IMG/VR virus record: IMGVR_UViG_3300017727_000080
Length of the DNA stretch: 31,415 nt
Reading direction: 5' to 3' (one strand)
DNA from: a virus
Below are positions 9,921-30,989 of this stretch, piece after piece (within the stretch, counting starts at the first letter, position 1; each line of letters starts with the position of its first letter). Under the pieces are notes generated by a model. It was given only the letters and a program-made list of their open reading frames with translations. It was not told the DNA's origin and made no database searches. The position numbers and the translations under genes were made by a program.

Positions 9921-10400
9921 ATGAAAAACTACTTATCGGACATCTATAAAAAGCATCAAGTATGGATTGACATTGTTTGCTCCTTTGGCTGTAACAAAGA
10001 AACAGCAGAAGATATTACACAAGAAATGTACATTAAAATTCAAAAAAGAATAAACAAAGGATTAGATATTGATTTTGGAGATGACTATAATTATTACTAT
10101 ATTTTTAAAACATTAAAATCTTTGTTCCTTGATTTAAAACGCAAAGAAGCTAAAGTCAATACGTTATCTATAGACAATATGAGGGATTTTTTAGCAGACT
10201 TTGATGCAGCTAATTATGAAGAAGTCTATGCTACAATACAAAATGAACTAAACAATATGTATTGGTATGATAAAAAGATATTTGAGATCATAGAAGGTGG
10301 CGAAAGTATAGCCCAGCTTTCAAGAAAGTCTGGCATACCTTACTACTCACTTTATAATACTTATAAGAAAGTAAAAGAAAAACTAAAAAAATTATTATGA
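9921..10400 (+). CDS. Sigma-70 family (ECF-like, two-domain) sigma factor candidate
   Basis: 159 aa. Region-2-like NKETAEDITQEMYIKIQKRI. C-terminal region-4-like HTH: IFEIIEGGESIAQLSRKSGIPYYSLYNTYKKVKEKLKKLL. Confidence 0.55.
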   Translation: MKNYLSDIYKKHQVWIDIVCSFGCNKETAEDITQEMYIKIQKRINKGLDIDFGDDYNYYYIFKTLKSLFLDLKRKEAKVNTLSIDNMRDFLADFDAANYEEVYATIQNELNNMYWYDKKIFEIIEGGESIAQLSRKSGIPYYSLYNTYKKVKEKLKKLL

Positions 10401-10828
10401 ATAGTAATGAAGTTTTTTATAATGATTTGAAAATAGGGAAATATTATGAAAAAATAATATTAGAAAAAATTAAAATTAAATATCCAAAAGCATACATACA
10501 GAAAGGATACTGTAAAGACTGGGATATATTCATTCCTGAACTTAATTTTGGAGTTGAAGTTAAATCAGATAAAAAAAGTTTACATACAGGCAACATAGTC
10601 ATAGAAATACAATTTAATAATAAACCATCTGCTTTGTCAACAACTAAATCTAAATACTGGGTAATATATGACGGACTTAAATATAATTGGTTTCTTGTAG
10701 ATAACATAAAAAAATGTATTAAAGAAAATAATTTATATTATCGTGAGTTTATAGGCAGAGGAGATACGCATTATAAAAAAGCATATTTAATAAAAAAAAC
10801 ATTATTATATAAATATAAAACTATATGA
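10397..10828 (+). CDS. PD-(D/E)xK nuclease-fold protein
   Basis: 143 aa. KDWDIFIPELNFGVEVKSD gives a D...E-x-K arrangement preceded by a conserved-looking E (YYEKIILE). Confidence 0.45.
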   Translation: MNSNEVFYNDLKIGKYYEKIILEKIKIKYPKAYIQKGYCKDWDIFIPELNFGVEVKSDKKSLHTGNIVIEIQFNNKPSALSTTKSKYWVIYDGLKYNWFLVDNIKKCIKENNLYYREFIGRGDTHYKKAYLIKKTLLYKYKTI

Positions 10829-10971
10829 GACTTGGAGACATAGTATTCTACATCACAAAATATACAGGCATCAAATGGCTTGTAGACAAATATCATAGCT
10901 ATATGGGAACTGAATGTAATTGCGACAAAAGACGTAAAGACTGGAATGAAATAAAAATAAAAAGATGGTAA
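10825..10971 (+). CDS. Hypothetical 48-aa protein (not in the ORF track)
   Basis: ATGA overlap with the upstream gene. The stop overlaps the next ATG (ATGGTAA). Product: MRLGDIVFYITKYTGIKWLVDKYHSYMGTECNCDKRRKDWNEIKIKRW. Confidence 0.45.
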   Translation: MRLGDIVFYITKYTGIKWLVDKYHSYMGTECNCDKRRKDWNEIKIKRW

Positions 10972-12859: not shown

Positions 12860-13058
12860 ACTAAAAGAACAATCCTTATTAAAAGTTCAATCTAAAATAT
12901 GGGAACAAAAAAGATTGATAAAAGAATTAGAAGATGACATTGAAAAAGATAATGACATTGAATTTGAAATAGTAGAATTACAATTTAACAATGCTATTAA
13001 TCAATTAGAGATATACGAATACATAAAAAAAGCAATACAGAACTATGAAAATATATAA
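12846..13058 (+). CDS. Hypothetical coiled-coil protein (70 aa)
   Basis: ORF-track entry that overlaps both neighbours on the gene strand. Confidence 0.45.
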   Translation: MQGNKLKEQSLLKVQSKIWEQKRLIKELEDDIEKDNDIEFEIVELQFNNAINQLEIYEYIKKAIQNYENI

Positions 13059-14538
13059 CCAAGATTGTTTATATAAACTCAAAGAGTTAGATGACAGTTC
13101 AGTAGATAGTATTGTTACTGACCCTCCTTATGGTTTATCTTTTATGGGCAAGAAATGGGATTATGATGTTCCAAGTGTAGAAATTTGGGTAGAGTGTTTA
13201 AGAGTTCTAAAACCAGGTGGACATCTTTTAGCGTTTGCAGGTTCAAGAACTTATCATAGAATGGCAGTTAGAATTGAAGATGCAGGGTTTGAAATTAGAG
13301 ATCAGATAATGTGGGTTTATGGTAGTGGGTTTCCTAAATCACACAACATAGGTAAAGCAGTAGATAAACAAGGTGGCAATTTACTTGGTAAAGAAGTTGC
13401 TGACCTTGTAAAGAAAAAAAGATTAGAAATAGGTTTATCTACTATACAATTAGCTGAACTTGGTAAATTTTATGGAAAAACAAATCACGGAGGCTCTGTA
13501 TCTAATTGGGAAACTGGTAGGGGTCGTATAACACCAGAACAATTTAATAAACTTATAGAAATATTAAATTTAGAAAACAATCCTATTATTGAAACTAAAC
13601 GAGAAGTTATTGGCAAACAAACAAACGATGACAATTTTAGATTTTATTCTTCAGGTCGTTATCAATGGAATACAGAAGGACAAAAAAGAAAAGAAAGTAT
13701 AGACATAACAAAAGGCAATTCAGAATGGGAAGGCTGGGGAACTGCACTCAAACCTGCACACGAACCTATTGTTATGGCAAGAAAACCTTTTAAAGGAACA
13801 GTAGTTAATAATGTATTAGAATGGGGAACTGGTGGAATAAACATAGATGCGAGTAGAATAGGTACAGAAAAGCTAACTAATAAAGGTATGTCATCATTAG
13901 GTGTTATGCACGATGATAATTGGAAATCAAAAAAAGTTGAAAACGAAGTAGAAGGCAGATTTCCTGCAAACATAATCTTTGATGAAGAAGCAGGTGAAAT
14001 CCTTGATGAACAAAGTGGAATATCAAAGAGTGGCAAATCAAGAGGTTTAACTCCAACAAAAGCGAGAAGTTGGAAAAATAGTAGTATTCAAGGAATAAAT
14101 AGAATAGATCACGATGACAAAGGTGGAGCTTCACGTTTCTTCTATTGCCCTAAAACTTCAAAGAAAGATAGAAATGAAGGGTTAGATGAGTTTGAAACAA
14201 AACAAACTGTAGGAGGTGGAGGTGGAATTGGTAATTATGAAAATGATGTAAATTCTTCAAGTGGCAAGTACGGTAGTGAAAAAGCACCGAGTAAGAATAA
14301 TCATCCAACTGTAAAACCAACTGATTTAATGTTATATCTTATTAGGTTAGTAACTCCTGAAAGAGGAACAACACTTGATCCTTTTATGGGTTCTGGTTCA
14401 ACAGGCAAAGCTGCAGTAAGAGGTGGGTTTGATTTTATAGGTATTGAAAGAGAAAAAGAATATATTGAAATAGCAAAAGCAAGAATTAAATATGAACAAG
14501 AAAAACAAAAACCTGATTCACAAATAAAATTATTTTAA
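13045..14538 (+). CDS. DNA methyltransferase (N6-adenine / N4-cytosine, beta class) with internal HTH-like insertion
   Basis: 497 aa. N-terminal IVTDPPYG (motif IV). C-terminal NHPTVKP and LDPFMGSGSTGKAA (motif I). Between them is LSTIQLAELGKFYGKTNHGGSVSNWETGRGRITPEQFNKLIEIL, which resembles an XRE-type HTH. Confidence 0.85.
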   Translation: MKIYNQDCLYKLKELDDSSVDSIVTDPPYGLSFMGKKWDYDVPSVEIWVECLRVLKPGGHLLAFAGSRTYHRMAVRIEDAGFEIRDQIMWVYGSGFPKSHNIGKAVDKQGGNLLGKEVADLVKKKRLEIGLSTIQLAELGKFYGKTNHGGSVSNWETGRGRITPEQFNKLIEILNLENNPIIETKREVIGKQTNDDNFRFYSSGRYQWNTEGQKRKESIDITKGNSEWEGWGTALKPAHEPIVMARKPFKGTVVNNVLEWGTGGINIDASRIGTEKLTNKGMSSLGVMHDDNWKSKKVENEVEGRFPANIIFDEEAGEILDEQSGISKSGKSRGLTPTKARSWKNSSIQGINRIDHDDKGGASRFFYCPKTSKKDRNEGLDEFETKQTVGGGGGIGNYENDVNSSSGKYGSEKAPSKNNHPTVKPTDLMLYLIRLVTPERGTTLDPFMGSGSTGKAAVRGGFDFIGIEREKEYIEIAKARIKYEQEKQKPDSQIKLF

Positions 14539-14540
14539 TT

Positions 14541-14876
14541 ATGACTAAACACGAATTTGAAGAAACAAAAAAATATCTATTGGACATTTGTCAACAAATA
14601 ATGGATGTAAAACAACCTGAATACACACAAAAGAATTTAGATATACTACACAACTTTAAATGTTCTGCTGAATTTATAGGCATAGAACCTATGGAGGTAT
14701 GGGCTGTATTTTTTAATAAACACATACAATCAATACTTGCACACGCTGGAGACCCTACTATGCATCAAGCAGAACCATTAGAAACAAGATATGCAGATGC
14801 TATTAACTATTTATTATTAGGCTTTAGCTTATTACAAGACAGACCAAAAAAAGACATCATTTCAGGAACAGAATGA
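14541..14876 (+). CDS. Hypothetical helical protein between the two methyltransferases
   Basis: 111 aa with an ATGA overlap to the second methyltransferase gene. There is only weak resemblance to all-alpha DUF1599/MazG-like domains (K..EY...W....NKH......D.INYLLLGFSL). Confidence 0.45.
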   Translation: MTKHEFEETKKYLLDICQQIMDVKQPEYTQKNLDILHNFKCSAEFIGIEPMEVWAVFFNKHIQSILAHAGDPTMHQAEPLETRYADAINYLLLGFSLLQDRPKKDIISGTE

Positions 14877-15634
14877 TATACAATGAAGATTGTTTAGTAG
14901 CTATGAAAGAAATACCTGATTATAGTATAGATGCTATTATAACAGACCCTCCTTATGGAACTACAGATTGTAAGTGGGATAGTGTAATAGACTTTGAGTT
15001 AATGTGGGAACAACTTAATAGAATTATAAAACCAAATGGTGCAACAGTTTTATTTGGAAGTGAGCCTTTTAGTTCTGCTTTGAGAATGAGTAATATTAAG
15101 AATTATAAGTATGATTGGATATGGATTAAAAACAGACCTACAGGAACTATGTTGGCAAAAAGACAACCTATGAGAAATGTAGAGAATATTTTAGTTTTCT
15201 ATAAATCACAACCAAAATATAATAGGCAAATGATAAAAAGAACACCAGAAGAATTTAAAAAATCTTATAGGAAAAATAATTCTGAATCTAAAAATGGCGA
15301 ACAAATGACATACAGAAAAACCCCTTTAATAAGACAAAGCAAAGATAGGCAATGGTATAAACCTCCAATTCAAACTTTATATTATAATTCTGATTCAAAA
15401 AGGAATGGTAAAAGTCATCCAACACAAAAACCAGTTGCATTAATGGAATATCTAATAAAAACATACACTAACGAAAACGAAACTGTATTAGATTTTACAA
15501 TGGGTTCTGGAACTACAGGCGTGGCTTGTTTAAATACAAATAGAAAATTTATAGGAATTGAAAATAACAAAGAATACTTTGAAGCTGCAGTAAAAAGAAT
15601 ACAACAACATAAGGCACAAAAAAGATTATTTTAA
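14873..15634 (+). CDS. DNA methyltransferase (N6-adenine / N4-cytosine, beta class)
   Basis: 253 aa. IITDPPYG, SHPTQKP and LDFTMGSGTTGVA motifs in beta-class order. Confidence 0.85.
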   Translation: MIYNEDCLVAMKEIPDYSIDAIITDPPYGTTDCKWDSVIDFELMWEQLNRIIKPNGATVLFGSEPFSSALRMSNIKNYKYDWIWIKNRPTGTMLAKRQPMRNVENILVFYKSQPKYNRQMIKRTPEEFKKSYRKNNSESKNGEQMTYRKTPLIRQSKDRQWYKPPIQTLYYNSDSKRNGKSHPTQKPVALMEYLIKTYTNENETVLDFTMGSGTTGVACLNTNRKFIGIENNKEYFEAAVKRIQQHKAQKRLF

Positions 15635-15694: not shown

Positions 15695-15703
15695 TGTGGA
15701 TAA
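15695..15703 (-). promoter_or_regulatory. Consensus DnaA box (TTATCCACA on the - strand)
   Basis: The + strand reads TGTGGATAA, a perfect 9-mer. It follows a roughly 60-nt stretch that is almost entirely A/T (15635-15694). A single occurrence could be chance. Confidence 0.3.
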
Positions 15704-15968
15704 TAGAAAAAACAATGGAGGACATTCGACAAAAGGCTTTGCAGGGAGACCTAAAAAAGCAGACGAACTAAAGCTGATTGAAAAACTTGATGCCTTAATA
15801 GATAATGATGAAGTAATTAAAACTTTAGGTAAACAAATACTAAAAGGAGACAGTAGAGCTATGAATCTATATTTCGGTTATAGATATGGCAAACCTAAAG
15901 AATCTGTAGACATATCTTCAAGTGATGGCTTTAATGTAAACTTTAGAGACCTAATCAAATTTAAGTGA
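15696..15968 (+). CDS. Putative terminase small subunit
   Basis: 90 aa, GTG start. Basic N-terminus NGGHSTKGFAGRPKK. GTGA overlap with the large terminase gene. Assigned mainly by position. Confidence 0.4.
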   Translation: MDNRKNNGGHSTKGFAGRPKKADELKLIEKLDALIDNDEVIKTLGKQILKGDSRAMNLYFGYRYGKPKESVDISSSDGFNVNFRDLIKFK

Positions 15969-17167
15969 TTGAAATAAATAAAAAGTATGCTCCTATTGCT
16001 GAATCAGACGGGAGGTACTTTATTGTAACTGGAGGACGTGGGTCTGGTAAATCATTCTCCATAAATCTCTTATTAGTTCTTTTAACTTATGAAGCTGGGC
16101 ATACTATACTGTTTACTCGTTACACTTTATCTTCTACTTATATTTCTATTATTCCTGAATTTATTGAAAAACTTGAATTGCTTAAAATCTTTGATGACTT
16201 TTATATCACAAAAGATGAAATAAGAAATAAGCGTTCTGGGAGCAAGATAATCTTTAAGGGTATCAAAACATCAAGTGGAGATCAAACAGCTAATCTAAAG
16301 TCATTACAAGGGGTTACAACCTTTGTATTAGACGAGGCAGAAGAACTTACTAATGAAGATACATTTGACAAGATAGATTTATCAGTCAGACAACAAGGCA
16401 AACATAATAGAGTGATACTAATACTAAATCCTACAACTAAAGAACATTGGATATATAAAAGATTCTTTGAAGATAAAGGAATACAAGAAAGTGTAAACAC
16501 TTCAAAAGATAATGTTACCTATATACATACAACTTATTTAGACAATCTTCAAAACCTTTCAGAAAGTTACATAAACCAAATAGACAACATAAAGAAACGC
16601 AGACCACAAAAGTATAAACATCAAATGCTTGGTGGCTGGTTAAATAAAGCAGAAGGCGTAATATTTACCAACTGGTCAATAGGAGAATTTAAAAAAGTAG
16701 GTATAAGCGTTTTTGGTCAAGACTTTGGAATGAATGACCCAAACACATTAATAGAAACTAATATAGATACTGCTAATAAGATTATTTATTTAAAAGAATG
16801 TTTTTACTTGCCTAAACTAACAACAAGCGAAATAGCACGTTTAAATATGAAACACGCAGTAGACAATCTAATAGTAGGCGATTCAGCAGAAAAAAGATTA
16901 ATCTATGAATTAAAACAGAAATGTAATATAGTAGCTTCAATAAAAGGAGCTGGTTCTATTACTTATGGAATATCATTATTACAGGACTATGATTTAATAG
17001 TAGACGAACAAAGTATTAATTTAATAAAAGAACTTAACAACTACAGTTGGCTTGAGAAGAAATCTAAAACACCAATAGACAAATGGAATCATTGTTTAGA
17101 TGCAATTAGATATGCAGTAAGTTACCAACTACAAAATCCTAACAGGGGTAAATATTATATACAATGA
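15965..17167 (+). CDS. terL: Terminase large subunit (PBSX/XtmB, Terminase_3-like)
   Basis: 400 aa. Walker A IVTGGRGSGKSFS, Walker B TTFVLDEAEE and a C-terminal nuclease region (FGQDFGMNDP...DAIRYA). Confidence 0.85.
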   Translation: MIEINKKYAPIAESDGRYFIVTGGRGSGKSFSINLLLVLLTYEAGHTILFTRYTLSSTYISIIPEFIEKLELLKIFDDFYITKDEIRNKRSGSKIIFKGIKTSSGDQTANLKSLQGVTTFVLDEAEELTNEDTFDKIDLSVRQQGKHNRVILILNPTTKEHWIYKRFFEDKGIQESVNTSKDNVTYIHTTYLDNLQNLSESYINQIDNIKKRRPQKYKHQMLGGWLNKAEGVIFTNWSIGEFKKVGISVFGQDFGMNDPNTLIETNIDTANKIIYLKECFYLPKLTTSEIARLNMKHAVDNLIVGDSAEKRLIYELKQKCNIVASIKGAGSITYGISLLQDYDLIVDEQSINLIKELNNYSWLEKKSKTPIDKWNHCLDAIRYAVSYQLQNPNRGKYYIQ

Positions 17168-17985: not shown

Positions 17986-18257
17986 GAAACAAAATACAGA
18001 ACATACAAGATTTAGAATACAGCAACAATCAAATATTAATTGGAGAATTAATTAAAAAGTGGTTAAAGGCAAAACCTAAAAACAAAGAGATTCTAAAATT
18101 AAGAGATGCGTTTATTGATAATTCAATTTATGTTGCAGGTTTACAGAATGATCTTACAGCTTCTAAAATGGCTAATAGTGAATATAGAGAAAGAATGAAT
18201 GAAGCCTTGTATGATTTAGAATTAATAAAAGAAGAAAATAAATATTATAGTGAGTGA
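17982..18257 (+). CDS. Hypothetical protein (91 aa)
   Basis: ORF-track entry. It is the last member of the coupled small-gene chain and is followed by a terminator. Confidence 0.5.
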   Translation: MRNKIQNIQDLEYSNNQILIGELIKKWLKAKPKNKEILKLRDAFIDNSIYVAGLQNDLTASKMANSEYRERMNEALYDLELIKEENKYYSE

Positions 18258-18283
18258 CTATATAATTGAGTTGTTTTGTTTGG

Positions 18284-18317
18284 AAAAAGGGTGTTAGAAA
18301 TAGCACCTTTTTTTTTA
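18284..18317 (+). terminator. Rho-independent terminator candidate
   Basis: AAAGGGTG / CACCTTT stem (one G-U pair), 10-nt loop, then a long T run. Confidence 0.55.
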
Positions 18318-18321
18318 TACT

Positions 18322-18348
18322 AAAATCCTACTTTAATTACGTTATATA
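18322..18348 (+). promoter_or_regulatory. Phage-specific promoter-like element, copy B
   Basis: AAAAT at 18322-18326, N12, ACGTTATATA at 18339-18348. ATG at 18352 is only 3 nt downstream. Confidence 0.55.
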
Positions 18349-18351
18349 AGT

Positions 18352-19002
18352 ATGAAAGCTAATATAAACGTTCCTAACGAACTTAATGAGATTACACTAA
18401 AGCAATATCAAAGGTTCTTAAAAGCTCAAGACAAAGCAAAGGATAATAACTTCATACAGACTAAAATGATTGAGATATTTTGTAGGGTAAAACCTCAAGA
18501 TGCTCTTAACATAAGATTGTCAGATGCAGAACGTATCACAAGAATAATATCAGATATGTTTGAACAGAAGCCTGATTTAGTACAGTCCTTCTGGCTTAAC
18601 AATGTAGAGTATGGTTTTGTTCCTGATCTTGATGAAATTACATTAGGAGAATATATTGACCTTGATACTTATATGGGAGACTGGGATAATATAGAAATAG
18701 CAATGAATGTATTATACAGACCTATCAAACAGAAACTTGGAAACAAGTATTTAATAGAGGACTATGACCCCGATAAAAAGGACAGAATTACTACAATGCC
18801 TATGGATGCTGTATTCGGTTCTATACTTTTTTTTTATCGTTTAGGGATAGAATTATCGAAAACTATGATGAATTATTTGGAGAACAAGGAGGAGAAACAA
18901 CTTCTGGACGTGCTGGATTTGCAAAAAAGTGGGGATGGTATTCGAGCCTTTACGGACTCGCTGGAGGAGATATTACAAGATTTGAAGATATCACAAAATT
19001 AG
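18352..19002 (+). CDS. Structural-module protein, tail-assembly-chaperone-like (zero-frame product)
   Basis: 216 aa, first gene after promoter copy B. It contains the T9 run at 18827-18835. The -1 frame is open across its 3' end. The chaperone assignment is inferred from the frameshift architecture, not from recognised homology. Confidence 0.5.
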   Translation: MKANINVPNELNEITLKQYQRFLKAQDKAKDNNFIQTKMIEIFCRVKPQDALNIRLSDAERITRIISDMFEQKPDLVQSFWLNNVEYGFVPDLDEITLGEYIDLDTYMGDWDNIEIAMNVLYRPIKQKLGNKYLIEDYDPDKKDRITTMPMDAVFGSILFFYRLGIELSKTMMNYLENKEEKQLLDVLDLQKSGDGIRAFTDSLEEILQDLKISQN

Positions 19003-19088
19003 AAATGCATAAGTGTTTAATGATGTTAGCATTTATGAAAGATAAAAACGAATTAGAATCGAAACAAATAAAAAGTAAGTTTAAATGA
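18777..19088 (+). other. Open -1 frame overlapping the 3' end of the 18352 ORF and filling the downstream gap; putative -1 frameshift extension
   Basis: 104 stop-free codons in the -1 frame. The heptamer T_TTT_TTT at 18828-18834 is in canonical phase. The frame ends with TGA at 19086-19088, overlapping ATG 19085 (ATGA). The predicted tail is ...FLSFRDRIIENYDELFGEQGGETTSGRAGFAKKWGWYSSLYGLAGGDITRFEDITKLEMHKCLMMLAFMKDKNELESKQIKSKFK. Confidence 0.45.
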
Positions 19089-19555
19089 GCCAACAAGGAA
19101 TAAGGGGATTTTACCAATTAACTGAAACAATAAAAGACCAGCTTTTAGCTGACATAAATTGTAATACAGTAACTACAGGAGACCTATATGATGTTAACCT
19201 TAACAAGCAAGACATATTCCCTCTTGCTCACATTATAGTCAACAACGTAACACAAGAAGAACAAACACTTACGTTTAACATAAGCATTCTTGCAATGGAT
19301 ATTGTAGATCAATCTAAATTACCAACAGAAGATAGATTTATAGGAAACAATAATGAACAAGATATACTTAACACACAATTAGCAGTATTAAATAAAGTAA
19401 TACAAGTTTTAAGAATGGGTACTTTATACAAAGACCAGTATCAATTAGATAGTCCAGTAAATTGTGAACCATTTTATGATAGGTTTGAAAACCAATTAGC
19501 TGGGTGGACTGCAACAATGGATATTATAATTTATAACGATATAAGAATCTGTTAA
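19085..19555 (+). CDS. Virion neck/tail completion protein candidate
   Basis: 156 aa, in the structural module. Function assigned only by position and general character. Confidence 0.4.
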   Translation: MSQQGIRGFYQLTETIKDQLLADINCNTVTTGDLYDVNLNKQDIFPLAHIIVNNVTQEEQTLTFNISILAMDIVDQSKLPTEDRFIGNNNEQDILNTQLAVLNKVIQVLRMGTLYKDQYQLDSPVNCEPFYDRFENQLAGWTATMDIIIYNDIRIC

Positions 19556-20088
19556 TGAACTTTGAAAATATAAATAAGGCATTAAAAGATTTTGGAAATT
19601 ATGTAGTCCAACAGTCAAGAACAAATTTGACAAAAGGTAACCATAACGCATCTAAAGAATTATATAACTCAATTACCTATACACTTGATGAAGAAGAAAA
19701 AGGTTTTATTATAAACTTTTTAATGGAAGAATACGGTGCATATCAAGATCAAGGTGTTAAAGGTGTTAAATCTAATTATATTGTAAATAAGAAGTCTCCT
19801 TTTTCATATAAGAGAAGTAGCAACTTAATAGGTCTTGAAAAAAAAACAGGAGTGTTTTCAAAATTTGCAAGGCGTGTTGGTCTACAGCCAAGAGATAAAA
19901 AAGGAAGATATGGTTCTTATGAAACAATGGGGTACATTCTTGCAAATAGTATAAAAAATAAAGGTATAAAAGCAAGTATGTTTTTTACTAAACCATTTGA
20001 AGCAGCTTTTAAAAGACTGCCACAAGAATTAGTAAACGACTTTATATTAGATATAGAAAAAGGAATAATATTAGGAACAAAAAAATAA
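19555..20088 (+). CDS. HK97 gp10-like tail completion protein candidate
   Basis: 177 aa. KELYNSITYTLDEEEKGFIINFLMEEYGAYQDQGVKG resembles the L(R/Y).SI...g....v....YA..vE.G core of the gp10 family. Confidence 0.4.
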   Translation: MNFENINKALKDFGNYVVQQSRTNLTKGNHNASKELYNSITYTLDEEEKGFIINFLMEEYGAYQDQGVKGVKSNYIVNKKSPFSYKRSSNLIGLEKKTGVFSKFARRVGLQPRDKKGRYGSYETMGYILANSIKNKGIKASMFFTKPFEAAFKRLPQELVNDFILDIEKGIILGTKK

Positions 20089-23475: not shown

Positions 23476-23622
23476 ATGATAAAAAATATATTAGAGCTAT
23501 TAAAGATCGTAGACGGAGAAACAGAAACAATTAGAATTGCACAAGGCAAATATAAAATAGCTGAAACTTTTAAAGAAGGATTTAAACAAATAAAAAGAGA
23601 AATAAAATGGCAGAAAAAATAG
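23476..23622 (+). CDS. Possible 48-aa protein (not in the ORF track)
   Basis: Product: MIKNILELLKIVDGETETIRIAQGKYKIAETFKEGFKQIKREIKWQKK. It starts 5 nt after the upstream stop and overlaps the 23607 start. Confidence 0.35.
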   Translation: MIKNILELLKIVDGETETIRIAQGKYKIAETFKEGFKQIKREIKWQKK

Positions 23623-25364
23623 AAGTACAATTATTAGTCGACACTAAAACTTCGGAAAAAAATGTTGAAAATCTGAACAAGGATTTAAAAGAAACAAGTT
23701 CTGACATATCTTCTATTGAAAATGCAGCAGACAAAGCTACTGGAGGTATGGTATCTGGTTTTAAGGGAGCAGCATCAGGTTTAAAAGGTGTTACAAAAGG
23801 ATTTAAAACAGTAGGTGGTGCAATAAAAGCTTCTGGTTTAGGTCTACTTGTTATAACAATTACTGCATTAACTGCTGCTTTTACAAGATCAGAAGAAGGG
23901 CAAAATAAGTTCGCTAAAATAATGGGTGTTCTTGGAGCAGTTACAGATGTATTTGCTGATAAAATTGCAGATTTAGGAGAATTAATCATAGATATTTTTA
24001 CAAAACCAAGTAAAGTATTAGAAGATTTTTCTAATTCTATACAAATCTTTGTAATGGATAAAGTAGATAAAGTAATAAAAGGAATGGGTCTTTTAGGTAC
24101 TGCAATAACTAAAGCGTTTTCTGGAGATTTTAAAGGGGCGTTAGAAGATGCAGGCAGTGGATTTGTAGAATTAAACAGGGGATTAAATCCTGCCGTAATA
24201 CTTACTGAATCATTAGTCAAGTCTACAAAAGAACTAACAAAAGAATTAGTAGAAGAAGGAAAAAAAGCTGGAGAAATTGCTGATATGAGGGCAAAGGCTG
24301 ACAAAGTAGAAAGACAATTACAAATAGATAGGGCTAAAGCAGATAGAGATAGAGCAGAACTTTTAGAACAGGCTGTTAATAAAGAGAAATTTAGTGTTGA
24401 AGAAAGAATATCATTTTTAGAAGAAGCGGGTAAATTAGAAGAAGAAATTACTAATAAAGAAATAGCTGCTGCAAAATTAAGATTAGATGCTAAAATTGCT
24501 GAAAATGCTTTAGGTAAATCAAATAAAGCAGATTTAGATGAAGAAGCAGCATTAAAAGCACAATTAATACAATTAGAAACAGCAAGGCTTACTAAACAAA
24601 AAGAAGTTACAAGTCAAACTATTGCTTTAAAAGCAGAAGAAGCAGCAGCATTAAAAGCTATTGAAGATCAAAAGAAAGCAGATGAAGAAGAAGCTAAATT
24701 ATTAGCTGATGAAGAAGCAGCAGCAAAAAAATTAAAACAAGAAGAAGCAGATAAAGCAGAAATTGAAAGAAAACAAAAACTTGCTGATGAAGAAAAAGCA
24801 ATAGAAGAACAAAAGAGAGCACAACAAGAAGAAACGTTTAACAATGCAGTTGCATTAGCAGGTGCAGAAACAAAACTTGGGAAAATGTTGTTGTTAGCTA
24901 AACAACTTTTATTAGCTAAAGAATTTGTATTAAACGCAAAAGCTCAAATAGCAAATGCTAAAAAAGCAGTAGGAGATGCTGTGGTTAGTGGTGCAGAATC
25001 AAGTACAGAAGTAGCAGGGTCGGTAGCAAAAGCTGCAAACACATCACCCCCTCCATTTAATATTCCTTTTATATTAACGGCATTAGCAACTGGAGCAAGT
25101 GTAATGAGTGCAGTAAATGCTGCAATTAGTTCTACTAAAAGTGCTGCAGCAAGAATTGGAGGAGGAGGAGGAGGCAGTATGCCTACGTCTCCATCTATTA
25201 CTCCAGTAGCACCACCTGCATTTAATGTAGTAGGTCAAGGAGGTACAAGTCAATTAGCAGATGCTATAAGTAATCAAGCACCAATGAGAGCATACGTTGT
25301 AAGTAATGATGTAACAACTGCACAAGGGCTTGAAAGAAATATTGTAGAAGGAGCAACAATATAA
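23607..25364 (+). CDS. Tape-measure-like protein
   Basis: 585 aa. Hydrophobic segments (GLGLLVITITALTAAF; PFILTALATGASVMSAV), a long A/E/K-rich coiled coil and a Gly run (GGGGGS) near the C-terminus. Confidence 0.55.
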   Translation: MAEKIEVQLLVDTKTSEKNVENLNKDLKETSSDISSIENAADKATGGMVSGFKGAASGLKGVTKGFKTVGGAIKASGLGLLVITITALTAAFTRSEEGQNKFAKIMGVLGAVTDVFADKIADLGELIIDIFTKPSKVLEDFSNSIQIFVMDKVDKVIKGMGLLGTAITKAFSGDFKGALEDAGSGFVELNRGLNPAVILTESLVKSTKELTKELVEEGKKAGEIADMRAKADKVERQLQIDRAKADRDRAELLEQAVNKEKFSVEERISFLEEAGKLEEEITNKEIAAAKLRLDAKIAENALGKSNKADLDEEAALKAQLIQLETARLTKQKEVTSQTIALKAEEAAALKAIEDQKKADEEEAKLLADEEAAAKKLKQEEADKAEIERKQKLADEEKAIEEQKRAQQEETFNNAVALAGAETKLGKMLLLAKQLLLAKEFVLNAKAQIANAKKAVGDAVVSGAESSTEVAGSVAKAANTSPPPFNIPFILTALATGASVMSAVNAAISSTKSAAARIGGGGGGSMPTSPSITPVAPPAFNVVGQGGTSQLADAISNQAPMRAYVVSNDVTTAQGLERNIVEGATI

Positions 25365-25399: not shown

Positions 25400-25999
25400 A
25401 TGAAGATAGTTGAATTGATACTTGACGAAAATCAAGAAGAATCTGGAATCGAAGCAATATCCATAGTTGAAAGTCCTGCCATTGAAGAAGATTTTATTGC
25501 TTTAAAAAGTAATGAAATTAAACTTGCAGAAATAGATAAAGAAAAAAAGATATTAATGGGAGCTTTGTTAATACCAAACAAACCTATATATCGAAATAAT
25601 GGAGAAGATGAATATTATATATACTTCTCTAAAGATACGGTATTGAAAGCATCCCAAATGTATTTGACAAAAGGTAATCAAAACAATTCTACATTAGAAC
25701 ACCAACATTCATTAAGTGGTTTAAGTTTAGTAGAATCTTGGCTTGTTGAAGATGAAGTACACGACAAGTCCAGAAAGTATGGAATGAATGTACCTGTAGG
25801 AACTTGGATGGGAGCTGTAAAAGTCAACAATGATGAAGTCTGGAATGACTATGTAAAAACAGGTAAAGTTAAAGGGTTTTCTATAGAAGGCTACTTTGCA
25901 GATAAAATGGAACGACCTAAAGATTCCGTTGGTTTATCAGAAGATAAAGAAGCTAATGATCTTATAGAAAAAATAAAAGATATTTTAACTAATGCCTAA
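25400..25999 (+). CDS. Prohead protease, XkdF-like
   Basis: 199 aa. IEAISIVESPAIE, ALLIPNKPIYR, LEHQ, SWLVED, GTWMGAVKVNNDEVWNDYVKTGKVKGFSIEG follow the XkdF-type putative phage serine protease pattern. It lies upstream of the scaffold and capsid genes. Confidence 0.7.
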   Translation: MKIVELILDENQEESGIEAISIVESPAIEEDFIALKSNEIKLAEIDKEKKILMGALLIPNKPIYRNNGEDEYYIYFSKDTVLKASQMYLTKGNQNNSTLEHQHSLSGLSLVESWLVEDEVHDKSRKYGMNVPVGTWMGAVKVNNDEVWNDYVKTGKVKGFSIEGYFADKMERPKDSVGLSEDKEANDLIEKIKDILTNA

Positions 26000-26141
26000 A
26001 AAAACATTTTTTCCAAGTTATACAAGTCCTAAAGGTTCAAGACGTGCTTGTTTATGTAAAGACAAAAATACTTATTCAAGAAAATGTTGTGATGGCTCTT
26101 TATGGGCACAAGGCATAGGAGTTATATCAAGAACAATATGA
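25992..26141 (+). CDS. Cys-rich basic 49-aa peptide (not in the ORF track)
   Basis: Product: MPKKTFFPSYTSPKGSRRACLCKDKNTYSRKCCDGSLWAQGIGVISRTI. The ATG overlaps the end of the protease gene. It fills the gap before promoter copy D. Confidence 0.4.
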   Translation: MPKKTFFPSYTSPKGSRRACLCKDKNTYSRKCCDGSLWAQGIGVISRTI

Positions 26142-26147
26142 AAATGC

Positions 26148-26174
26148 AAAAAAATTAATTAACCACGTTATATA
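26148..26174 (+). promoter_or_regulatory. Phage-specific promoter-like element, copy D
   Basis: AAAAA at 26148-26152, N12, ACGTTATATA at 26165-26174. ATG at 26182 is 7 nt downstream. Confidence 0.5.
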
Positions 26175-26181
26175 TATAATT

Positions 26182-26841
26182 ATGAAATCAACTGAAATGT
26201 TAAACCAAATCAAGACGCTTCTAAATATAGAAGTTAAACTTGAAGAACAAAAACTTGAGAACGGTACTCGTGTAGAAGCAGAATCGTTTGAAAAAGGTAA
26301 AGAGATATTTATTCTTACAGATGACGAAAAAGTTGCTATGCCAGTAGGAGAATACCTACTTGAAGATGGCAGACTTATAGTTGTTGCAGAAGAAGGAATT
26401 ATTGATGACGTTAGAGAAGTATCTGACGAAGTTCCACAAAAGGAAGAAGAATCTAAAGATGAAACCGAAGATTTAGAGTACAAAGACAAAGAAGAAAAAA
26501 TGGATGAAGAAGCTGATGTACAAGACTGGGAAGGTATGGAAAAAAGAATTAAAAATCTTGAAGATGCTATTGCTGATCTTAAATCTAAAGTTGGAGAAAA
26601 AAATATGGAAGAAGAAGTTGAAATGGAAGAAGAAGTTTCAAGACAACCTAAATCAAGAACAGTTAAAGAAGAATTTAACGAAGAAGTAAACGAGCAATTA
26701 AAGGAAGAATTATCACAACCTGCTGCTGCTCCAATTAAACATAATCCTGAATCAGGAAACGCAAAAAAAGAACATTTTAGAATTTCGCCAAATAGAAAGC
26801 CATCTACAATGGACTATATATTAAATCAATTAAATAAATAA
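26182..26841 (+). CDS. Scaffolding protein
   Basis: 219 aa, highly acidic (E/D/K-rich) and helical. It sits immediately upstream of the major capsid gene and downstream of the protease. Confidence 0.65.
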   Translation: MKSTEMLNQIKTLLNIEVKLEEQKLENGTRVEAESFEKGKEIFILTDDEKVAMPVGEYLLEDGRLIVVAEEGIIDDVREVSDEVPQKEEESKDETEDLEYKDKEEKMDEEADVQDWEGMEKRIKNLEDAIADLKSKVGEKNMEEEVEMEEEVSRQPKSRTVKEEFNEEVNEQLKEELSQPAAAPIKHNPESGNAKKEHFRISPNRKPSTMDYILNQLNK

Positions 26842-26853
26842 AAATAAATAATT

Positions 26854-27822
26854 ATGCCACAACCAACTATTACTACTACTTATGCTGGAGAATTTGCAGG
26901 TAAGTACATTGCTGCTGCTCTTTTGAGTGGTAACACATTAAGTCAGGGTGCTATCGAAATTAAGCCTAACATTAAGTTCAAAGAAGTTATGAAAAAAGTT
27001 GTTACTTCTGGTTTAATTACTGATGACTCTTGTGACTTCACATCTGCTGGAACTGTAACACTTACTGAAAGAATTATACAGCCAACAGAATTTCAAGTTA
27101 ACCTTGAATTATGTAAAACACCTTTTGAATCAGACTGGGGAGCTGTATCTATGGGCTATTCAGCTTTTGATAATTTACCTCCTGATTTTTCGAGTTTCTT
27201 AATAGCTCACGTTGCAGAACAAGTATCTGCTAATACAGAAAGCAATATCTGGCAAGGGAATCTTGGAGGTGCACAAGCTGGAGAATTTGACGGATTCACA
27301 ACTTTAGCTACTGCTGATGCAGACGTAATTGATGTTGCCGCTGTAGGTGGTGGTGTTAATTCTGGAAACGTAATTGCAGAACTTGGAAAAATCGTTGATG
27401 CAATTCCATCTACTTTATATGGTAAAGATGATTTACACATCTACGTTTCACAAAACATTGCTAAAGCCTATGTAAGAGCTTTAGGTGGATATGCTGCTAT
27501 AACTAACGTTGCAGGAACTGAAAATGTAGGTTCTGTAGGAGCAAATGGTATTGACAACAGAGGTACACTATGGTATGCTGGAGGAGAAAATCTTTCTATT
27601 GACGGTGTAAAAATCTTTGTTGCTAATGGTTTACCAAACAATTATGCAATGGCTGCTCAAAGAAGTAACCTTTACTTTGGAACTGGATTAATGTCTGACT
27701 ACAATCTTGTAAAATTGATTGATATGGCAGATATTGACGGAAGTAAAAACGTAAGAGTAATTATGAGATTTACTGCTGGAGTACAGTACGGAATAGGGTC
27801 TGAAATAGTACTTTATTCTTAA
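26854..27822 (+). CDS. Major capsid protein (HK97-fold type)
   Basis: 322 aa. Its position after the protease and scaffold, its size and composition, and the strong terminator that follows all fit a major capsid protein. Confidence 0.8.
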   Translation: MPQPTITTTYAGEFAGKYIAAALLSGNTLSQGAIEIKPNIKFKEVMKKVVTSGLITDDSCDFTSAGTVTLTERIIQPTEFQVNLELCKTPFESDWGAVSMGYSAFDNLPPDFSSFLIAHVAEQVSANTESNIWQGNLGGAQAGEFDGFTTLATADADVIDVAAVGGGVNSGNVIAELGKIVDAIPSTLYGKDDLHIYVSQNIAKAYVRALGGYAAITNVAGTENVGSVGANGIDNRGTLWYAGGENLSIDGVKIFVANGLPNNYAMAAQRSNLYFGTGLMSDYNLVKLIDMADIDGSKNVRVIMRFTAGVQYGIGSEIVLYS

Positions 27823-27843
27823 TAAATTAAATTAACCAAAAAT

Positions 27844-27882
27844 AAAGGGTAGGTGGGTATATGCTTACTTACCCTTTTTTTT
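27844..27882 (+). terminator. Rho-independent terminator
   Basis: AAAGGGTAGGT / ACTTACCCTTT stem (one G-U pair), 12-nt loop, T run of eight. Confidence 0.7.
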
Positions 27883-27901
27883 ATAAAATAAAATATAAAC
27901 T

Positions 27902-28429
27902 ATGGCTTGTACATTAAACACAGGGAGAAAATTACCTTGTAAAAGTGCCTTCGGTGGCATAAAAACAGTTTGGTTTGGAGATTTCGGAGGTATTACTGGT
28001 GTAACTGTAGATTCTACTACAAAACAAGTAACAACTATCGCAGGAACACAACCTGACTGGTATCAATTTGATGTAAAGGGTAATTCTTCACTTGAAACTA
28101 CTGTAACAAGTTCAAGAGAAAATGGAACTACTTTTTATACTCAAACATTAAATTTAACACTAACATTCCTTGATGCTAAAACACAAGCTGAATTGCAAGA
28201 AATAGCTAAAGCAAGACCTTATGTTTGTGTTGAAGATTACTACGGAAATCAATTCTTATGTGGACTTGAAAACGGAATGGAGTTTGTTTCAGGAACAGTA
28301 GTTTCTGGAGCTGCTGCAGGAGATTTATCAGGATTCACTTTAGTAATGGAAGGTCAAGAAGAATTAGCTCCTTACTTTTTAGATTCAGGATTGATTGTTG
28401 CAAACGCAGCACAAATAGTACCTAACTAA
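27902..28429 (+). CDS. Tail-tube-like major virion protein candidate
   Basis: 175 aa, beta-rich. It is bracketed by two strong terminators, which suggests an abundant product. The general pattern resembles siphophage tail-tube proteins, but I cannot name a specific family. Confidence 0.45.
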   Translation: MACTLNTGRKLPCKSAFGGIKTVWFGDFGGITGVTVDSTTKQVTTIAGTQPDWYQFDVKGNSSLETTVTSSRENGTTFYTQTLNLTLTFLDAKTQAELQEIAKARPYVCVEDYYGNQFLCGLENGMEFVSGTVVSGAAAGDLSGFTLVMEGQEELAPYFLDSGLIVANAAQIVPN

Positions 28430-28450
28430 TATTTATTGATATTAAATTAA

Positions 28451-28477
28451 GAGCATCCTTCGGGGTGCTTTTTTTTT
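28451..28477 (+). terminator. Rho-independent terminator
   Basis: GAGCATCC-ttcg-GGGTGCTT hairpin with a UUCG-type tetraloop, followed by a T run. Confidence 0.75.
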
Positions 28478-28493
28478 GCTTTAACATTTTCAC

Positions 28494-28520
28494 AAAATAA
28501 CTTATTTATTACGTTATATA
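28494..28520 (+). promoter_or_regulatory. Phage-specific promoter-like element, copy E
   Basis: AAAAT at 28494-28498, N12, ACGTTATATA at 28511-28520. ATG at 28525 is 4 nt downstream. Confidence 0.55.
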
Positions 28521-28524
28521 TAAA

Positions 28525-28953
28525 ATGATTGTATTAAAGACCACAGCTTCGGCTCAAAACTTTGAAGTTATCCCAAGAGTATATGGGGATGAATTTACTT
28601 TATCAATAAGAGACGATAGTACAAACAACATACAAACATATCAGGTAACTAATGCCACAACAACTGGTAATTATTTAACGTTTAGTCAAGCATTTAGTCC
28701 TGTTTTAGTTGAAGGTCATTTTTACGATTTAGAATTATATACAGACCCAAATTTTTGGAATACTAATTATTTTTTATGGGAAGTTTATAATGAATTTTGG
28801 AATGTAGATACAACAAACATTGTAGATATATTTAAAGACAAGATTTTCTGTACAGACCAAGAAATAGATCAAATGGATAATTTATACTATAACATCAATC
28901 AAGGTCAATACATAACAGACAATTCTTATAATAATGATTACATTGTAATATGA
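28525..28953 (+). CDS. Hypothetical structural-module protein (142 aa)
   Basis: ORF-track entry. First gene after promoter copy E, with an ATGA overlap to the portal gene. Confidence 0.5.
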   Translation: MIVLKTTASAQNFEVIPRVYGDEFTLSIRDDSTNNIQTYQVTNATTTGNYLTFSQAFSPVLVEGHFYDLELYTDPNFWNTNYFLWEVYNEFWNVDTTNIVDIFKDKIFCTDQEIDQMDNLYYNINQGQYITDNSYNNDYIVI

Positions 28954-30989
28954 AAAATAGAAAAAGAAATAGTTTAGGTCAATTTGTTAAAGAATCTAAA
29001 TCCGAAATTAGTTTTGTTAATTTAAGTACCTATACAAGTCCAGAAGTGACAGAAGTTCCAAACCAAGAATGGGTAGGTTATGGGGATGATAACAATTACT
29101 TTCAATTTTTAATAGACAGATACAATGGAAGTCCAACAAATAATGCTTGTATAAATGGTATAAGTCAACAAATTTATGGTAAAGGTTTGGGAGCTACAGA
29201 TTCAAACAGAAAACCAGAGCAGTATGCAGAAATGATTACATTATTTAAAAAAGATATTGTAAGAAAACTATGTTATGATCTAAAACTAATGGGTCAATGT
29301 GCAATGCAAATAATTTATTCTAAAGACAGAACTAAAATTGCTCAAATAGAACATATGCCTATTGAAACATTAAGGGCAGAAAAATGTAATGAAGATGGAG
29401 ATATACCAGCATACTATTATTTTAAAGATTGGTCAAAATTAAAGCCAAGTGATAAACCATTAAGAATACCAGCTTATGGAATGTCAAAAGAAAACATTGA
29501 AATATATTACATAAAACCATATAAATCTGGCTTTTACTATTATGCACCTGTAGATTATCAAGGTGGAATACAATATGCAGAGCTTGAGGAGGAGATCAGT
29601 AACTATCATTTAAACAATATAATGAATGGTTTAAGTCCTTCAATGCTTATAAATTTCAATAACGGAACACCTAATCCACAAGAAAGAGAACTAATAGAGC
29701 AACGTATTGCACAAAAGTTTAGTGGAACAAGTAATGCAGGTAAATTTATATTATCATTTAACGACAATAAAGAAGCACAAGCAGAAATAACACCTGTTCA
29801 ATTATCAGATGCTCACAATCAATACCAATTTTTAAGTGACGAATCACAAAGTAAAGTATTAGTAGCTCATAGGGTAGTAAGTCCTATGCTTTTAGGTATA
29901 AAAGACAATACAGGTCTTGGAAACAATGCAGATGAAATAAAGACTGCATCTTTACTTATGGATAACACGGTTATAAGACCGTTTCAGGAACTTTTAATAG
30001 ACTGCTTTGATAATATACTTGCTTACAACAATATAGCCTTAAACCTCTACTTTATTACGTTACAGCCACTAGAATTTACTGATGTTGACAGAAGCGTACA
30101 AACAGATGAAGAAATAGAAGAAGAAACTGGAATTAAAATGTCTACTGATCTTAAAGAAATAGACGGATTAGAGGTTTACGAAACTAAAGAAGAAGCAGAA
30201 AGACAAGCTGAAAAAATGGGGTGTTCTGGTCATCACGAACACAAAGAAGGGGATAAGGTTTGGTATATGCCTTGTGAATCACACGATGAAATAGATTTAA
30301 AAAAACCTTGTCAGGCTGGATATGAACAATACGGAATGAAAGTTAAGAACGGTAGATTAGTGCCTAATTGTATTCCTATTAAAATGTCAAGTGAACTTGG
30401 GGAAGTTATTTTAGAAAATTTAAAAGGCGAAGTAATAAATGACGAATGGGAACTTGTAGATGAATTACAAGAAGGTTCTGACATAAGCAATGAGGACTGG
30501 GCTAATATATGTATTGATGAAAAAAAGAGTTTGTTTCAACAATTAAAAGATGAAATTACTGCTAAACCTGATGGCTTTAGTTATTTAGATTCTAAAAACT
30601 ATAAGATTAGATATAAGTATGTAGTAGGTTCTAAAAAACCAAGTAATTCAACAAGAGATTTTTGTGAAAATATGATGCGTTTATCTAAATCAGGCATTGT
30701 ATATAGATTAGAAGATATTGACAAAGCAACAAGAGAAGGAGTTAATAAAGAATTAGGACATAAAGGTAGACCTTACGATTTATTCAAATTTAAAGGTGGA
30801 ATTTATTGTAGACATAAATGGATGCGACAATTATATCGTTTAAAGAAAAACACAAAACCATCTAAAGATTTAAGTGATTACAAGAAAACAAGAACGATAC
30901 CTAAAACTTATATTAAGAATCCAAGAGGAACTAAACAATCACAAATAGCACCAGTTAATATGCCTAATCAAGGAGCATACCCAAAATAG
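28950..30989 (+). CDS. Portal protein fused to a MuF/SPP1-gp7-like C-terminal domain
   Basis: 679 aa. The N-terminal ~370 aa are portal-like by size and position. An acidic linker follows, then a Cys/His motif MGCSGHHEHKEGDKVWYMPCESH. The C-terminus STRDFCENMMRLSKSGIVYRLEDID...GHKGRPYDLFKFKGGIYCRHKW resembles minor-head (MuF-type) proteins. Confidence 0.6.
   Translation: MKNRKRNSLGQFVKESKSEISFVNLSTYTSPEVTEVPNQEWVGYGDDNNYFQFLIDRYNGSPTNNACINGISQQIYGKGLGATDSNRKPEQYAEMITLFKKDIVRKLCYDLKLMGQCAMQIIYSKDRTKIAQIEHMPIETLRAEKCNEDGDIPAYYYFKDWSKLKPSDKPLRIPAYGMSKENIEIYYIKPYKSGFYYYAPVDYQGGIQYAELEEEISNYHLNNIMNGLSPSMLINFNNGTPNPQERELIEQRIAQKFSGTSNAGKFILSFNDNKEAQAEITPVQLSDAHNQYQFLSDESQSKVLVAHRVVSPMLLGIKDNTGLGNNADEIKTASLLMDNTVIRPFQELLIDCFDNILAYNNIALNLYFITLQPLEFTDVDRSVQTDEEIEEETGIKMSTDLKEIDGLEVYETKEEAERQAEKMGCSGHHEHKEGDKVWYMPCESHDEIDLKKPCQAGYEQYGMKVKNGRLVPNCIPIKMSSELGEVILENLKGEVINDEWELVDELQEGSDISNEDWANICIDEKKSLFQQLKDEITAKPDGFSYLDSKNYKIRYKYVVGSKKPSNSTRDFCENMMRLSKSGIVYRLEDIDKATREGVNKELGHKGRPYDLFKFKGGIYCRHKWMRQLYRLKKNTKPSKDLSDYKKTRTIPKTYIKNPRGTKQSQIAPVNMPNQGAYPK

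Follow-up and report, generated by a model that had tools for sequence, protein, structure and literature searches.

In Shigella flexneri mxiE, transcriptional slippage on a U run restores a longer product (PMC1088944, PMC5009743), and an A9 run in dnaX of Thermus thermophilus is likewise a site of transcriptional slippage (PMC1088944). Escherichia coli dnaX arrives at the same outcome through a -1 ribosomal frameshift, which means that this outcome can be reached at either level. Among phages, one morphogenesis gene gives two proteins in lambda (G/GT) and in P2 (E/E+E'); the P2 heptamer is T-rich (T_TTT_TTG), and a conserved -1 ribosomal frameshift in tail assembly chaperone genes was reportedly described by Xu, Hendrix and Duda in 2004. 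Here, we analyse a gene at positions 18352-19088 of the IMG/VR virus record IMGVR_UViG_3300017727_000080, a stretch of 31,415 nucleotides that is called the window as a whole and belongs to a marine flavobacterial phage. The gene contains a run of nine T's (T9), and we give about an even chance to the proposal that it is expressed by programmed recoding at this tract through transcriptional slippage, with products of 216 and 245 amino acids (aa).

The nearest precedents are mxiE/spa13 and Thermus dnaX for the mechanism, lambda G/GT and P2 for the biology, and the homopolymer frameshifts of endosymbionts for the evolution. As in mxiE/spa13, where the run is of U's or A's, a homopolymer tract lies within a coding sequence, a second open reading frame (ORF) lies in the -1 frame and one untemplated nucleotide would join the two. 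In both, the extension also terminates at the start of the next gene or overlaps it, and in that system it affects the expression of this gene (PMC1088944, PMC5009743). In contrast, mxiE/spa13 concerns a bacterial regulator and secretion-system genes on a plasmid and not a putative phage assembly gene; accounts of that system mention no long, conserved stretch of dual coding that gives a second functional tail; and slippage was measured there but is inferred here. Thermus dnaX is similar in that a nine-base homopolymer within a gene leads to two C-termini and off-frame mRNAs meet a nearby stop. However, its non-standard product is shorter with few novel residues, whereas here that product is longer and apparently ancestral, and it is the standard product that carries a 55-residue overprinted tail.

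With lambda G/GT and P2 E/E+E', the gene shares a common N-terminus with a -1-frame extension on one of two proteins and an arrangement conserved far past detectable sequence similarity, and the window holds no other chaperone candidate adjoining its tape-measure-like gene. Unlike those genes, it lies 4.5 kb upstream of the tape-measure-like gene, after the terminase region and with four genes between; the shift falls at codon 161 of 216, which leaves 55 codons, and not just a few, up to the zero-frame stop; the alternative tails have 55 and 84 residues, so that the short form has a conserved tail of its own; and distant relatives of the gene are single ORFs. An initial annotation of the window had already likened the gene to the G/GT pairs. 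This remains an analogy: a position next to the tape-measure gene, a shift near the 3' end and similarity of sequence or fold are not found here. In the accounts of the insect endosymbionts Buchnera and Blochmannia cited in PMC5009743 and PMC3711429, a gene is broken at an A/T tract, polymerase infidelity recovers the protein and the state persists for long; those cases are described as the rescue of broken genes in decaying genomes, whereas here the zero-frame continuation is kept open. Because this continuation is itself open and conserved, two useful products are indicated.

The locus is distinctive in combining a putative phage assembly gene, a T tract of at least nine held across thousands of lineages and two apparently selected overlapping tails. 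It is distinctive too in that a single-ORF ancestor can be demonstrated, natural in-frame and truncated variants exist, the tape-measure gene lies elsewhere and no accessory RNA structure accompanies the site. No prior description of this site or family was found in the searchable literature.

Two reading frames and a T9 tract

The features of the locus, all on the plus strand, are as follows.

18352-19002, +: zero-frame ORF from the ORF listing (ATG 18352, TAA 19002), short product of 216 aa
18827-18835, +: T9 tract, putative recoding site; the zero frame reads CTT TTT TTT TAT
18834-19088, +: -1-frame segment after the shift, by translation; 84 codons plus TGA, C-terminal domain of the long product
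18836-19002, +: dual-coding overlap of the zero and -1 frames, about 55 codons
18842-18844, +: TAG in the third (+1) frame, within a conserved TTTAGG, which would end the product of a one-U-short mRNA at 163 aa
19085-19555, +: downstream gene of 156 aa, whose ATG overlaps the long-form TGA as ATGA

Standard decoding would give the 216-aa protein, in which residues 1-161 are the shared N-terminal domain and residues 162-216 the alternative tail, and a fraction of events read one base back would give a 245-aa protein with the same 161 N-terminal residues. The -1 frame is free of stops from 18777 to the TGA at 19086-19088 (103 sense codons) and is the sole coverage of the 82 nt at 19003-19084. 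The C-terminal domain of the conceptual long product reads LSFRDRIIENYDELFG...KWGWY...KQIKSKFK, and the junction is ...L F F L S F R... by either recoding route. The -1 tail contains IIENYDELFGEQGG and WGWYSSLYGLAGGDITR, and the zero-frame tail contains LGIELSK and SLEEILQDLK. With one T added to the tract, a 245-codon ORF results, and its homology to single-ORF relatives spans the full length.

The coordinates that the initial annotation gave for the ORF, the T9 tract, the open -1 frame and the ATGA overlap all hold in the sequence, as does its reading of 19003-19084 as a gap with no other cover. It had also called the open -1 frame unusual, and this is borne out: off-frame stops occur at 0.10-0.11 per codon in the phage's own genes, and at that frequency a 104-codon open -1 frame has a chance of ~4e-6 per position. 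Base composition predicts 0.3 T9 runs in the window, whereas four are seen, and the one at 18827-18835 is the sole T9 within any ORF of the genome. Chance does not explain the T9 tract together with the open -1 frame. The heptamer T_TTT_TTT at 18828-18834 does lie in phase with the zero frame, as had been pointed out; however, this carries no information because every run of at least nine T's necessarily contains such a heptamer.

Where the frame changes can be narrowed down from the relatives. The nearest upstream -1-frame stops lie 1-2 codons from the run in many loci, and the open stretch before the run spans 1-21 codons. The -1 frame has no ATG, GTG or TTG before the end of the run in 198 of 215 distinct sites; the next possible start is mostly 50-69 codons downstream, unless an in-frame GTG (Val) adjoins the tract, as in the clade with ten T's (T10). 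In the window, the first ATG, GTG or TTG of the -1 frame is at 19005, 76 codons in and past both FFLSFR and KWGWY. Independent initiation is therefore excluded for most relatives by the lack of -1 start codons near the run, and on these sequence grounds the frame change is located at the T tract.

Since the downstream ATG overlaps the long-form TGA, only ribosomes in the -1 frame terminate on that start codon, and the long-form stop may thus be effectively coupled to translation of the downstream gene. A further heptamer, A_AAA_AAG, the classic bacterial slippery sequence, is in phase with the long-form frame at 18923-18929 (GCA AAA AAG). Many relatives share it but not all, SRK or GRK often standing in place of AKK, and one contig with 6.2x coverage by its name has an indel near the matching position.

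Conservation of the tract and of both tails

Relatives were gathered from IMG/VR by homology with four queries, to which three contigs with fused proteins and one odd short-form contig were added by look-up. They share descent, and their counts are thus not counts of independent events. A -1 shift is needed in 229 further distinct relatives with 28-100% amino-acid identity, made up of 205 viral-contig genes (of 208) and 24 loci from genomes or metagenome-assembled genomes (MAGs). Among the former, the run is T9 in 109, T10 in 94, T11 in one and broken (T6CTT) in one. All 24 analysable loci of the latter, taken from a species-representative collection, have T9 or T10; they are mostly from MAGs of Flavobacteriales and other Bacteroidota, with one isolate, Flagellimonas onchidii XY-359. 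In this isolate, a block on a 320-kb scaffold (L263, NZ_SRXX01000003.1, ~10.3-23.1 kb) carries a large terminase gene, the T9 gene in the -1 arrangement and then genes of 149, 169, 342 and 780 aa, and is probably a prophage or a phage-derived element.

The run has at least nine T's in 228 of the 229 relatives, across codon phases 0, 1 and 2. Its end T's are supplied by differing flanking codons, e.g. CTT TTT TTT TAT, TTT TTT TTT TAT, ATG TTT TTT TTT CTG and AGT TTT TTT TTT CAT. Three synonymous sites within the heptamer are invariant among relatives. The sole relative with a shorter run is a 3.4-kb JGI contig (L170 960-985) with the interrupted tract GTTTTTTCTTAC, a singleton that was chosen because its protein lacked the Phe pair; the in-phase heptamer is also absent from it, and both frames are still intact and conserved. 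The third frame is closed 0-3 codons from the run in 204 of 205 relatives, and the ATGA junction with the next gene is present in 162 of 205.

The arrangement extends to cultured phages. A tblastn search with the conceptual long protein matched the Nonlabens (Persicivirga) phages P12024L and P12024S at ~30% identity, the match falling in two pieces over gp40 (175 aa) and gp41 (55 aa, -1 frame), which are annotated as two unrelated hypothetical proteins in the 0 and -1 frames. At the site, the Nonlabens phages read gcatacTTTTTTTTTatcatttaggga and the window reads tctatacTTTTTTTTTatcgtttaggga, with the same T9 and the same flanks. When the Nonlabens long form was the tblastn query, no further cultured phages appeared at E up to 10, and a DNA-level search of the phage collection with 18200-19600 gave no match, the relatives being found by protein-level search only. 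It is a very large family: clustering at 50% identity gives 3,517 clusters (E up to 0.001), and a single search pattern matches more than 600 stretches in IMG/VR.

An A9 run at 19838-19846, within the downstream 177-aa gene (GAA AAA AAA, residues EKK), provides a contrast. Synonymous changes break it in close relatives (GAG AAA AAA, GAA AAA AAG) and it is absent in more distant ones. As the run is not conserved, it was rejected as a second slippage site; judged by this comparison, it arose by chance and can be used as a negative control for the T9 tract.

Both tails appear to be real protein. The C-terminal 84 residues of the long form align well across relatives, with the motifs FFL.FR, Y.ELFG and KWGWY as well as GDI.RFE.ITKL..H.C and K.E.E..QIK.KFK, and they are found fused in single-ORF proteins; the suggestion in the initial annotation that the shifted tail is genuine protein is thus upheld. 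Its proposal of recoding with products of 216 and 245 aa is likewise strongly supported, the T run, the -1 arrangement and both frames being kept in the 229 further relatives, and the comparison of orthologues that it called for found the open -1 frame present and the T run and both frames conserved. The zero-frame tail runs for 50-63 codons in 205 of 205 loci, often with a shared stop position, and carries the motifs LG.(E/D)LS..M.YLE, LQK(S/N)G.GI and SL.EIL..LKIS.N across clades. Part of this conservation is forced by the -1 frame, e.g. NGDGI beneath KWGWY. When the -1 protein was re-encoded with the codon usage of this phage in 11 deep lineages, the zero frame stayed open in 0.04-2.1% of trials, and in the reverse test the -1 frame stayed open in 0.04-7.9%. 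Diversity at wobble positions was as follows.

N-terminal single-coding part: T10 clade 0.52, T9 clade 0.35
-1-only part: T10 clade 0.36, T9 clade 0.16
Overlap, both frames: T10 clade 0.24-0.27, T9 clade 0.13-0.14

Wobble variation of both frames is therefore reduced in the overlap, as dual coding predicts. This conservation suggests that both products are under selection, and a function of its own for the short form and a meaningful ratio of the two products may likewise be inferred.

Polymerase slippage and its alternatives

In the proposed mechanism, host RNA polymerase would slip on nine template A's and add one untemplated U, favoured by the weak U:A hybrid and by a tract about as long as the whole RNA-DNA hybrid. 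U10 mRNAs would then contain a continuous 245-codon ORF ending on the start codon of the next gene, and mRNAs one U short would be closed at once by the conserved third-frame TAG. Closure of the third frame limits the possible products of U8 or U11 mRNAs. Polymerase slippage is favoured because the run never falls below nine in any codon phase (the interrupted singleton apart) and there is no conserved RNA structure. RNAalifold found no consensus pair in 26 diverse sites, the single-sequence fold at the site was no better than shuffled (z = +0.5), and a stimulatory downstream RNA structure was accordingly dropped as a candidate. At a length of nine, selection against slippage-prone A/T runs first shows in many bacterial genomes (PMC1088944), and the Thermus dnaX run has this length too, Shigella mxiE using its U run in like manner.

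All other T8-T9 tracts of the genome (7858-7866, 9053-9060, 18308-18316, 27875-27882 and 28469-28477) follow a G+C-rich hairpin, e.g. GAGCATCCTTCGGGGTGC-T9, and look like intrinsic terminators between gene blocks. Because they sit after hairpins in this terminator-like way, U tracts seem to matter to the host polymerase. The T9 at 18827-18835 has no preceding hairpin, unlike the others, and was for this reason rejected as an internal terminator.

Several points weigh against polymerase slippage. A -1 ribosomal shift gives an identical 245-aa sequence. Each T could be explained by the heptamer (seven) and by hydrophobic residues of either frame (the two ends), so a run never shorter than nine is suggestive and not decisive. 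Phage frameshifts such as that of lambda G/GT are of low level and have no known stimulator, and ribosomal shifting is thus compatible with the absent RNA structure. Slippage would also yield U8 and U11 mRNAs and a truncated protein, which seems wasteful. To our knowledge, no measurement of slippage by a Bacteroidota RNA polymerase on T9 has been reported. The sequence evidence fits the ribosome as well as the polymerase, and both may contribute.

A programmed -1 ribosomal frameshift on U_UUU_UUU in unaltered mRNA, in the manner of lambda G/GT or P2 E/E+E' and with the same 245-aa product, has a probability of perhaps a third and is the strongest rival. It would account for the in-phase heptamer in the relatives other than L170, for the three invariant synonymous sites within it and for a conserved -1 ORF that lacks its own initiation codon, and a long-form stop overlapping the next start fits translational control. 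Moreover, conserved -1 shifts in phage morphogenesis genes are well established, the lambda site being a low-level one (PMC5009743). However, seven T's suffice for such a shift, yet 228 of 229 relatives keep at least nine in three codon phases. No hairpin, pseudoknot or Shine-Dalgarno (SD)-like stimulator accompanies the site, which low-level phage frameshifts do not strictly require, and downstream structure is not conserved. Stimulation by an upstream SD sequence is unlikely, as Flavobacteriia make little use of these sequences. In addition, T9-T10 is expected to make bacterial RNA polymerase slip anyway, and ribosomal frameshifting would have to coexist with heterogeneous mRNA.

Polymerase slippage could also be no more than the rescue of an ancient one-base loss in the T tract, with the 216-aa product as a functionless, tolerated by-product. 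An ancestral long form is indeed indicated by distant structural relatives of 240-268 aa that are full-length single ORFs (TM 0.7-0.77), the zero-frame tail is predicted with low confidence (predicted local distance difference test, pLDDT, 44-55), and selection-maintained homopolymer frameshifts are documented in the endosymbiont work cited in PMC3711429. Yet the zero frame is open for 50-63 codons in every one of the 205 loci despite ~0.1 off-frame stops per codon, an openness with P of 0.0004-0.021 per lineage in 11 deep lineages; the tail end ...SL.EIL..LKIS.N and often the stop position are conserved; wobble variation is suppressed in both frames; and fused variants are singletons or limited to 1-2 contigs, with none among the IMG/VR homologues. 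We regard a purely tolerated by-product as improbable.

Fused variants also bear on the option, raised in the initial annotation, of a homopolymer error, and on that of phase variation at the DNA level, in which the true or alternating state would be T10 and the gene a plain 245-codon ORF. Single ORFs of ~245 aa make up 34 of the 120 best protein hits, with 53-62% identity. Among these 120 hits, fused forms have 1-2 contigs per cluster and short (216-aa) forms up to 45, and fused forms rank high in the hit list because they cover the whole query. The DNA was inspected for three fused proteins, all from singleton contigs. A TARA scaffold encodes a fused ORF with T11 at 4473-4483, where sister IMG/VR contigs have T10; two further fused-protein contigs come from one assembly, with names giving 3.3x and 6.2x coverage, one with T11 and the other with T9 and a second indel, this one within a run of A's. 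In two fused proteins, 'FF' replaces 'FFF', consistent with T8, and a 163-aa protein ending in ...LFFIV is a T8 version of the window's own type, stopped at the third-frame TAG.

L083 4473-4483; L084; proteins P0001 (the 163-aa protein), P0054 and P0118: run-length variants in public assemblies

In-frame versions thus do occur in public assemblies. Against error or phase variation, the window's exact protein with T9 occurs in eight assemblies from different samples (100% protein identity), no IMG/VR locus recovered by homology has a fused gene and the shift is needed in each of the 24 genome loci. Nor can an error account for a zero-frame tail that is open and conserved, and phase variation would be expected to show both states as consensus at appreciable frequency. 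The idea that the gene is normally one ORF was rejected, as the inspected cases are singletons with an extra T or a second indel; from their sequences, the fused forms can be read as rare run-length variants or homopolymer errors. As fused variants are so sparse, a return to a single ORF is apparently not favoured. Error or phase variation is thus very improbable as the cause of the frame change, and error is refuted: the same T9 allele is present in at least eight independent assemblies, and the tract in two phage isolates and a bacterial isolate genome, and the supposition that the true run is T10 fails on the identical T9 allele.

Two separate genes, with the C-terminal segment initiated internally in the -1 frame (gp41-like, or the 27-aa ORF from ATG 19005 that the initial annotation held in reserve), are barely credible, for although RefSeq lists P12024L gp41 as a separate 55-aa coding sequence and Flavobacterium phage 6H has a stand-alone 52-aa -1 ORF with a stop right after its T6 run, the first -1 start in the window lies downstream of FFLSFR and KWGWY and so leaves the conserved -1 sequence upstream of 19005 unexplained, 198 of 215 relatives lack any start codon before the run end, and the N and C parts belong to a single fold in single-ORF relatives, with a modelled helix (151-176) spanning the junction.

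The protein, its surroundings and what they mean

An AlphaFold2 model of the long form, built on an alignment of 32 long forms (pLDDT 83.6, predicted template modelling score 0.78), has a mixed alpha/beta N domain (1-150), a long helix (151-176) that spans the recoding site and, beyond a disordered linker, three helices at the C-terminus (pLDDT 73-83). In the short-form model, the N domain exceeds pLDDT 90 and the form's own tail is a low-confidence helix (pLDDT 44-55). The short form matches PHROG 32199 and the -1 part is covered by PHROG 38404, both of unknown function. Pfam gave nothing above noise, and no Phage_TAC, for either form or for nine diverse relatives; Foldseek with the long-form model found no match in PDB below E = 1; and a profile search against PDB sequences gave nothing for this protein or for its 333-aa and 792-aa neighbours. 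BFVD contains many uncharacterised proteins of uncultured tailed phages that match at full length (240-268 aa, TM 0.7-0.77, 17-23% identity); its sole named matches are three weak ones, to proteins with a tail assembly annotation (E 0.13-0.57, TM ~0.3). Because more distant relatives encode it as a single ORF, the long form is the ancestral protein, and the zero-frame tail, on this comparison and the structural models, would be a later overprint.

Flavobacterium phage 6H (L169, KC959568) carries a distant structural relative at 10044-10927 on the minus strand, a 191-aa ORF followed by a 52-aa -1-frame ORF that ends in ATGA with the next gene. Its T run is only T6, and TAG closes the -1 frame directly after. 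The corresponding PHROG profile (25418) has 293 positions, and the relatives of 6H therefore appear to have an unsplit gene.

The first and last 123 bp of the window (1-123 and 31293-31415) are identical, a terminal direct repeat which indicates a complete genome of ~31.3 kb, circularly closed or terminally redundant. The genes are ordered as follows.

1: tail fibre
2: replication and DNA methylase genes
3: large terminase (15965-17167)
4: small ORFs
5: recoded gene
6: genes of 156, 177, 333 and 792 aa
7: 585-aa tape-measure-like gene (23607-25364)
8: prohead protease, scaffold-like and capsid-like genes
9: portal gene

The 585-aa protein is coiled-coil and glycine-rich and looks like a tape measure, and for the 177-aa protein, the Nonlabens homologue matches HK97 gp10-like tail components below threshold. 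The order of the modules is unusual in that the tape-measure-like gene is directly followed by the prohead protease, scaffold-like and capsid-like genes (23607-25364, 25400-30989), and the portal gene is the last in the window, far from the large terminase gene. In P12024L as in the Flagellimonas locus, the large terminase gene immediately precedes the recoded gene. In 6H, the distant structural relative follows a 320-aa protein, taken as capsid by position only, and precedes small genes taken for neck components and, further on, a 1198-aa tape-measure-like protein. Just upstream of the gene in the window lies a further feature.

18283-18316, +: hairpin GGTG...CACC followed by T9, not called by a simple terminator scan as its stem is too short

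We tentatively consider this hairpin with its T9 a terminator and the gene the first of a new transcription unit.

From this genomic context, we infer that the protein is a virion-assembly factor. Neither the window nor 6H has a chaperone-like ORF directly before its tape-measure-like gene. By analogy and elimination, a role like that of a tail assembly chaperone is plausible, if a little less than evenly probable. The gene is not classed as a tail assembly chaperone, because the family, fold and positional features that define one are not found here. A small terminase was rejected as its function, as a 90-aa ORF is a better candidate and the position relative to the terminase gene is not conserved in 6H. 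This 90-aa ORF (15696-15968) begins with GTG, runs into the beginning of the large terminase gene and has no family match. The window also encodes two N6/N4 DNA methylases (13045-14538 and 14873-15634). Relatives (L083 105-899; L168 16409-18674) carry a Tet/JBP-type 2OG-Fe dioxygenase, and P12024L also carries a glucosyltransferase and a methyltransferase. The phages of this group may therefore hypermodify their DNA.

Everywhere, gene callers either divide this gene or cut it short, current annotation overlooks the two-product arrangement in thousands of ocean phages, and most database entries are the 216-aa form. In a family of this size, the long protein is therefore missing from most ocean-virome catalogues. 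Whether polymerase or ribosome is responsible can be tested with the cultured phages P12024S and P12024L on Nonlabens (Persicivirga) sp. IMCC12024. The phage-like block of Flagellimonas onchidii XY-359 is a possible experimental system as well, and paired ocean metagenomes and metatranscriptomes exist for the uncultured types. For siphovirus-like flavobacterial phages in which no recognisable chaperone gene adjoins the tape-measure gene, the locus further points to an assembly factor under ratio control.

In its broadest form, which we hold as a real possibility at somewhat under even probability, the proposal is that a very large family of marine Bacteroidota phages depends on obligatory polymerase slippage at T9-T10 in a virion-assembly gene, having captured a one-base loss and overprinted a new tail. 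If this is true, the ancestral C-terminal domain would be reachable only by slippage, and read-through in the zero frame would have become a selected 55-residue tail. One gene would thereby supply a fixed ratio of two assembly proteins, or three with the truncated form. The family would then be the first widespread instance, among phage structural genes, of programmed transcriptional slippage, as well as a dated case of coding sequence born de novo by overprinting.

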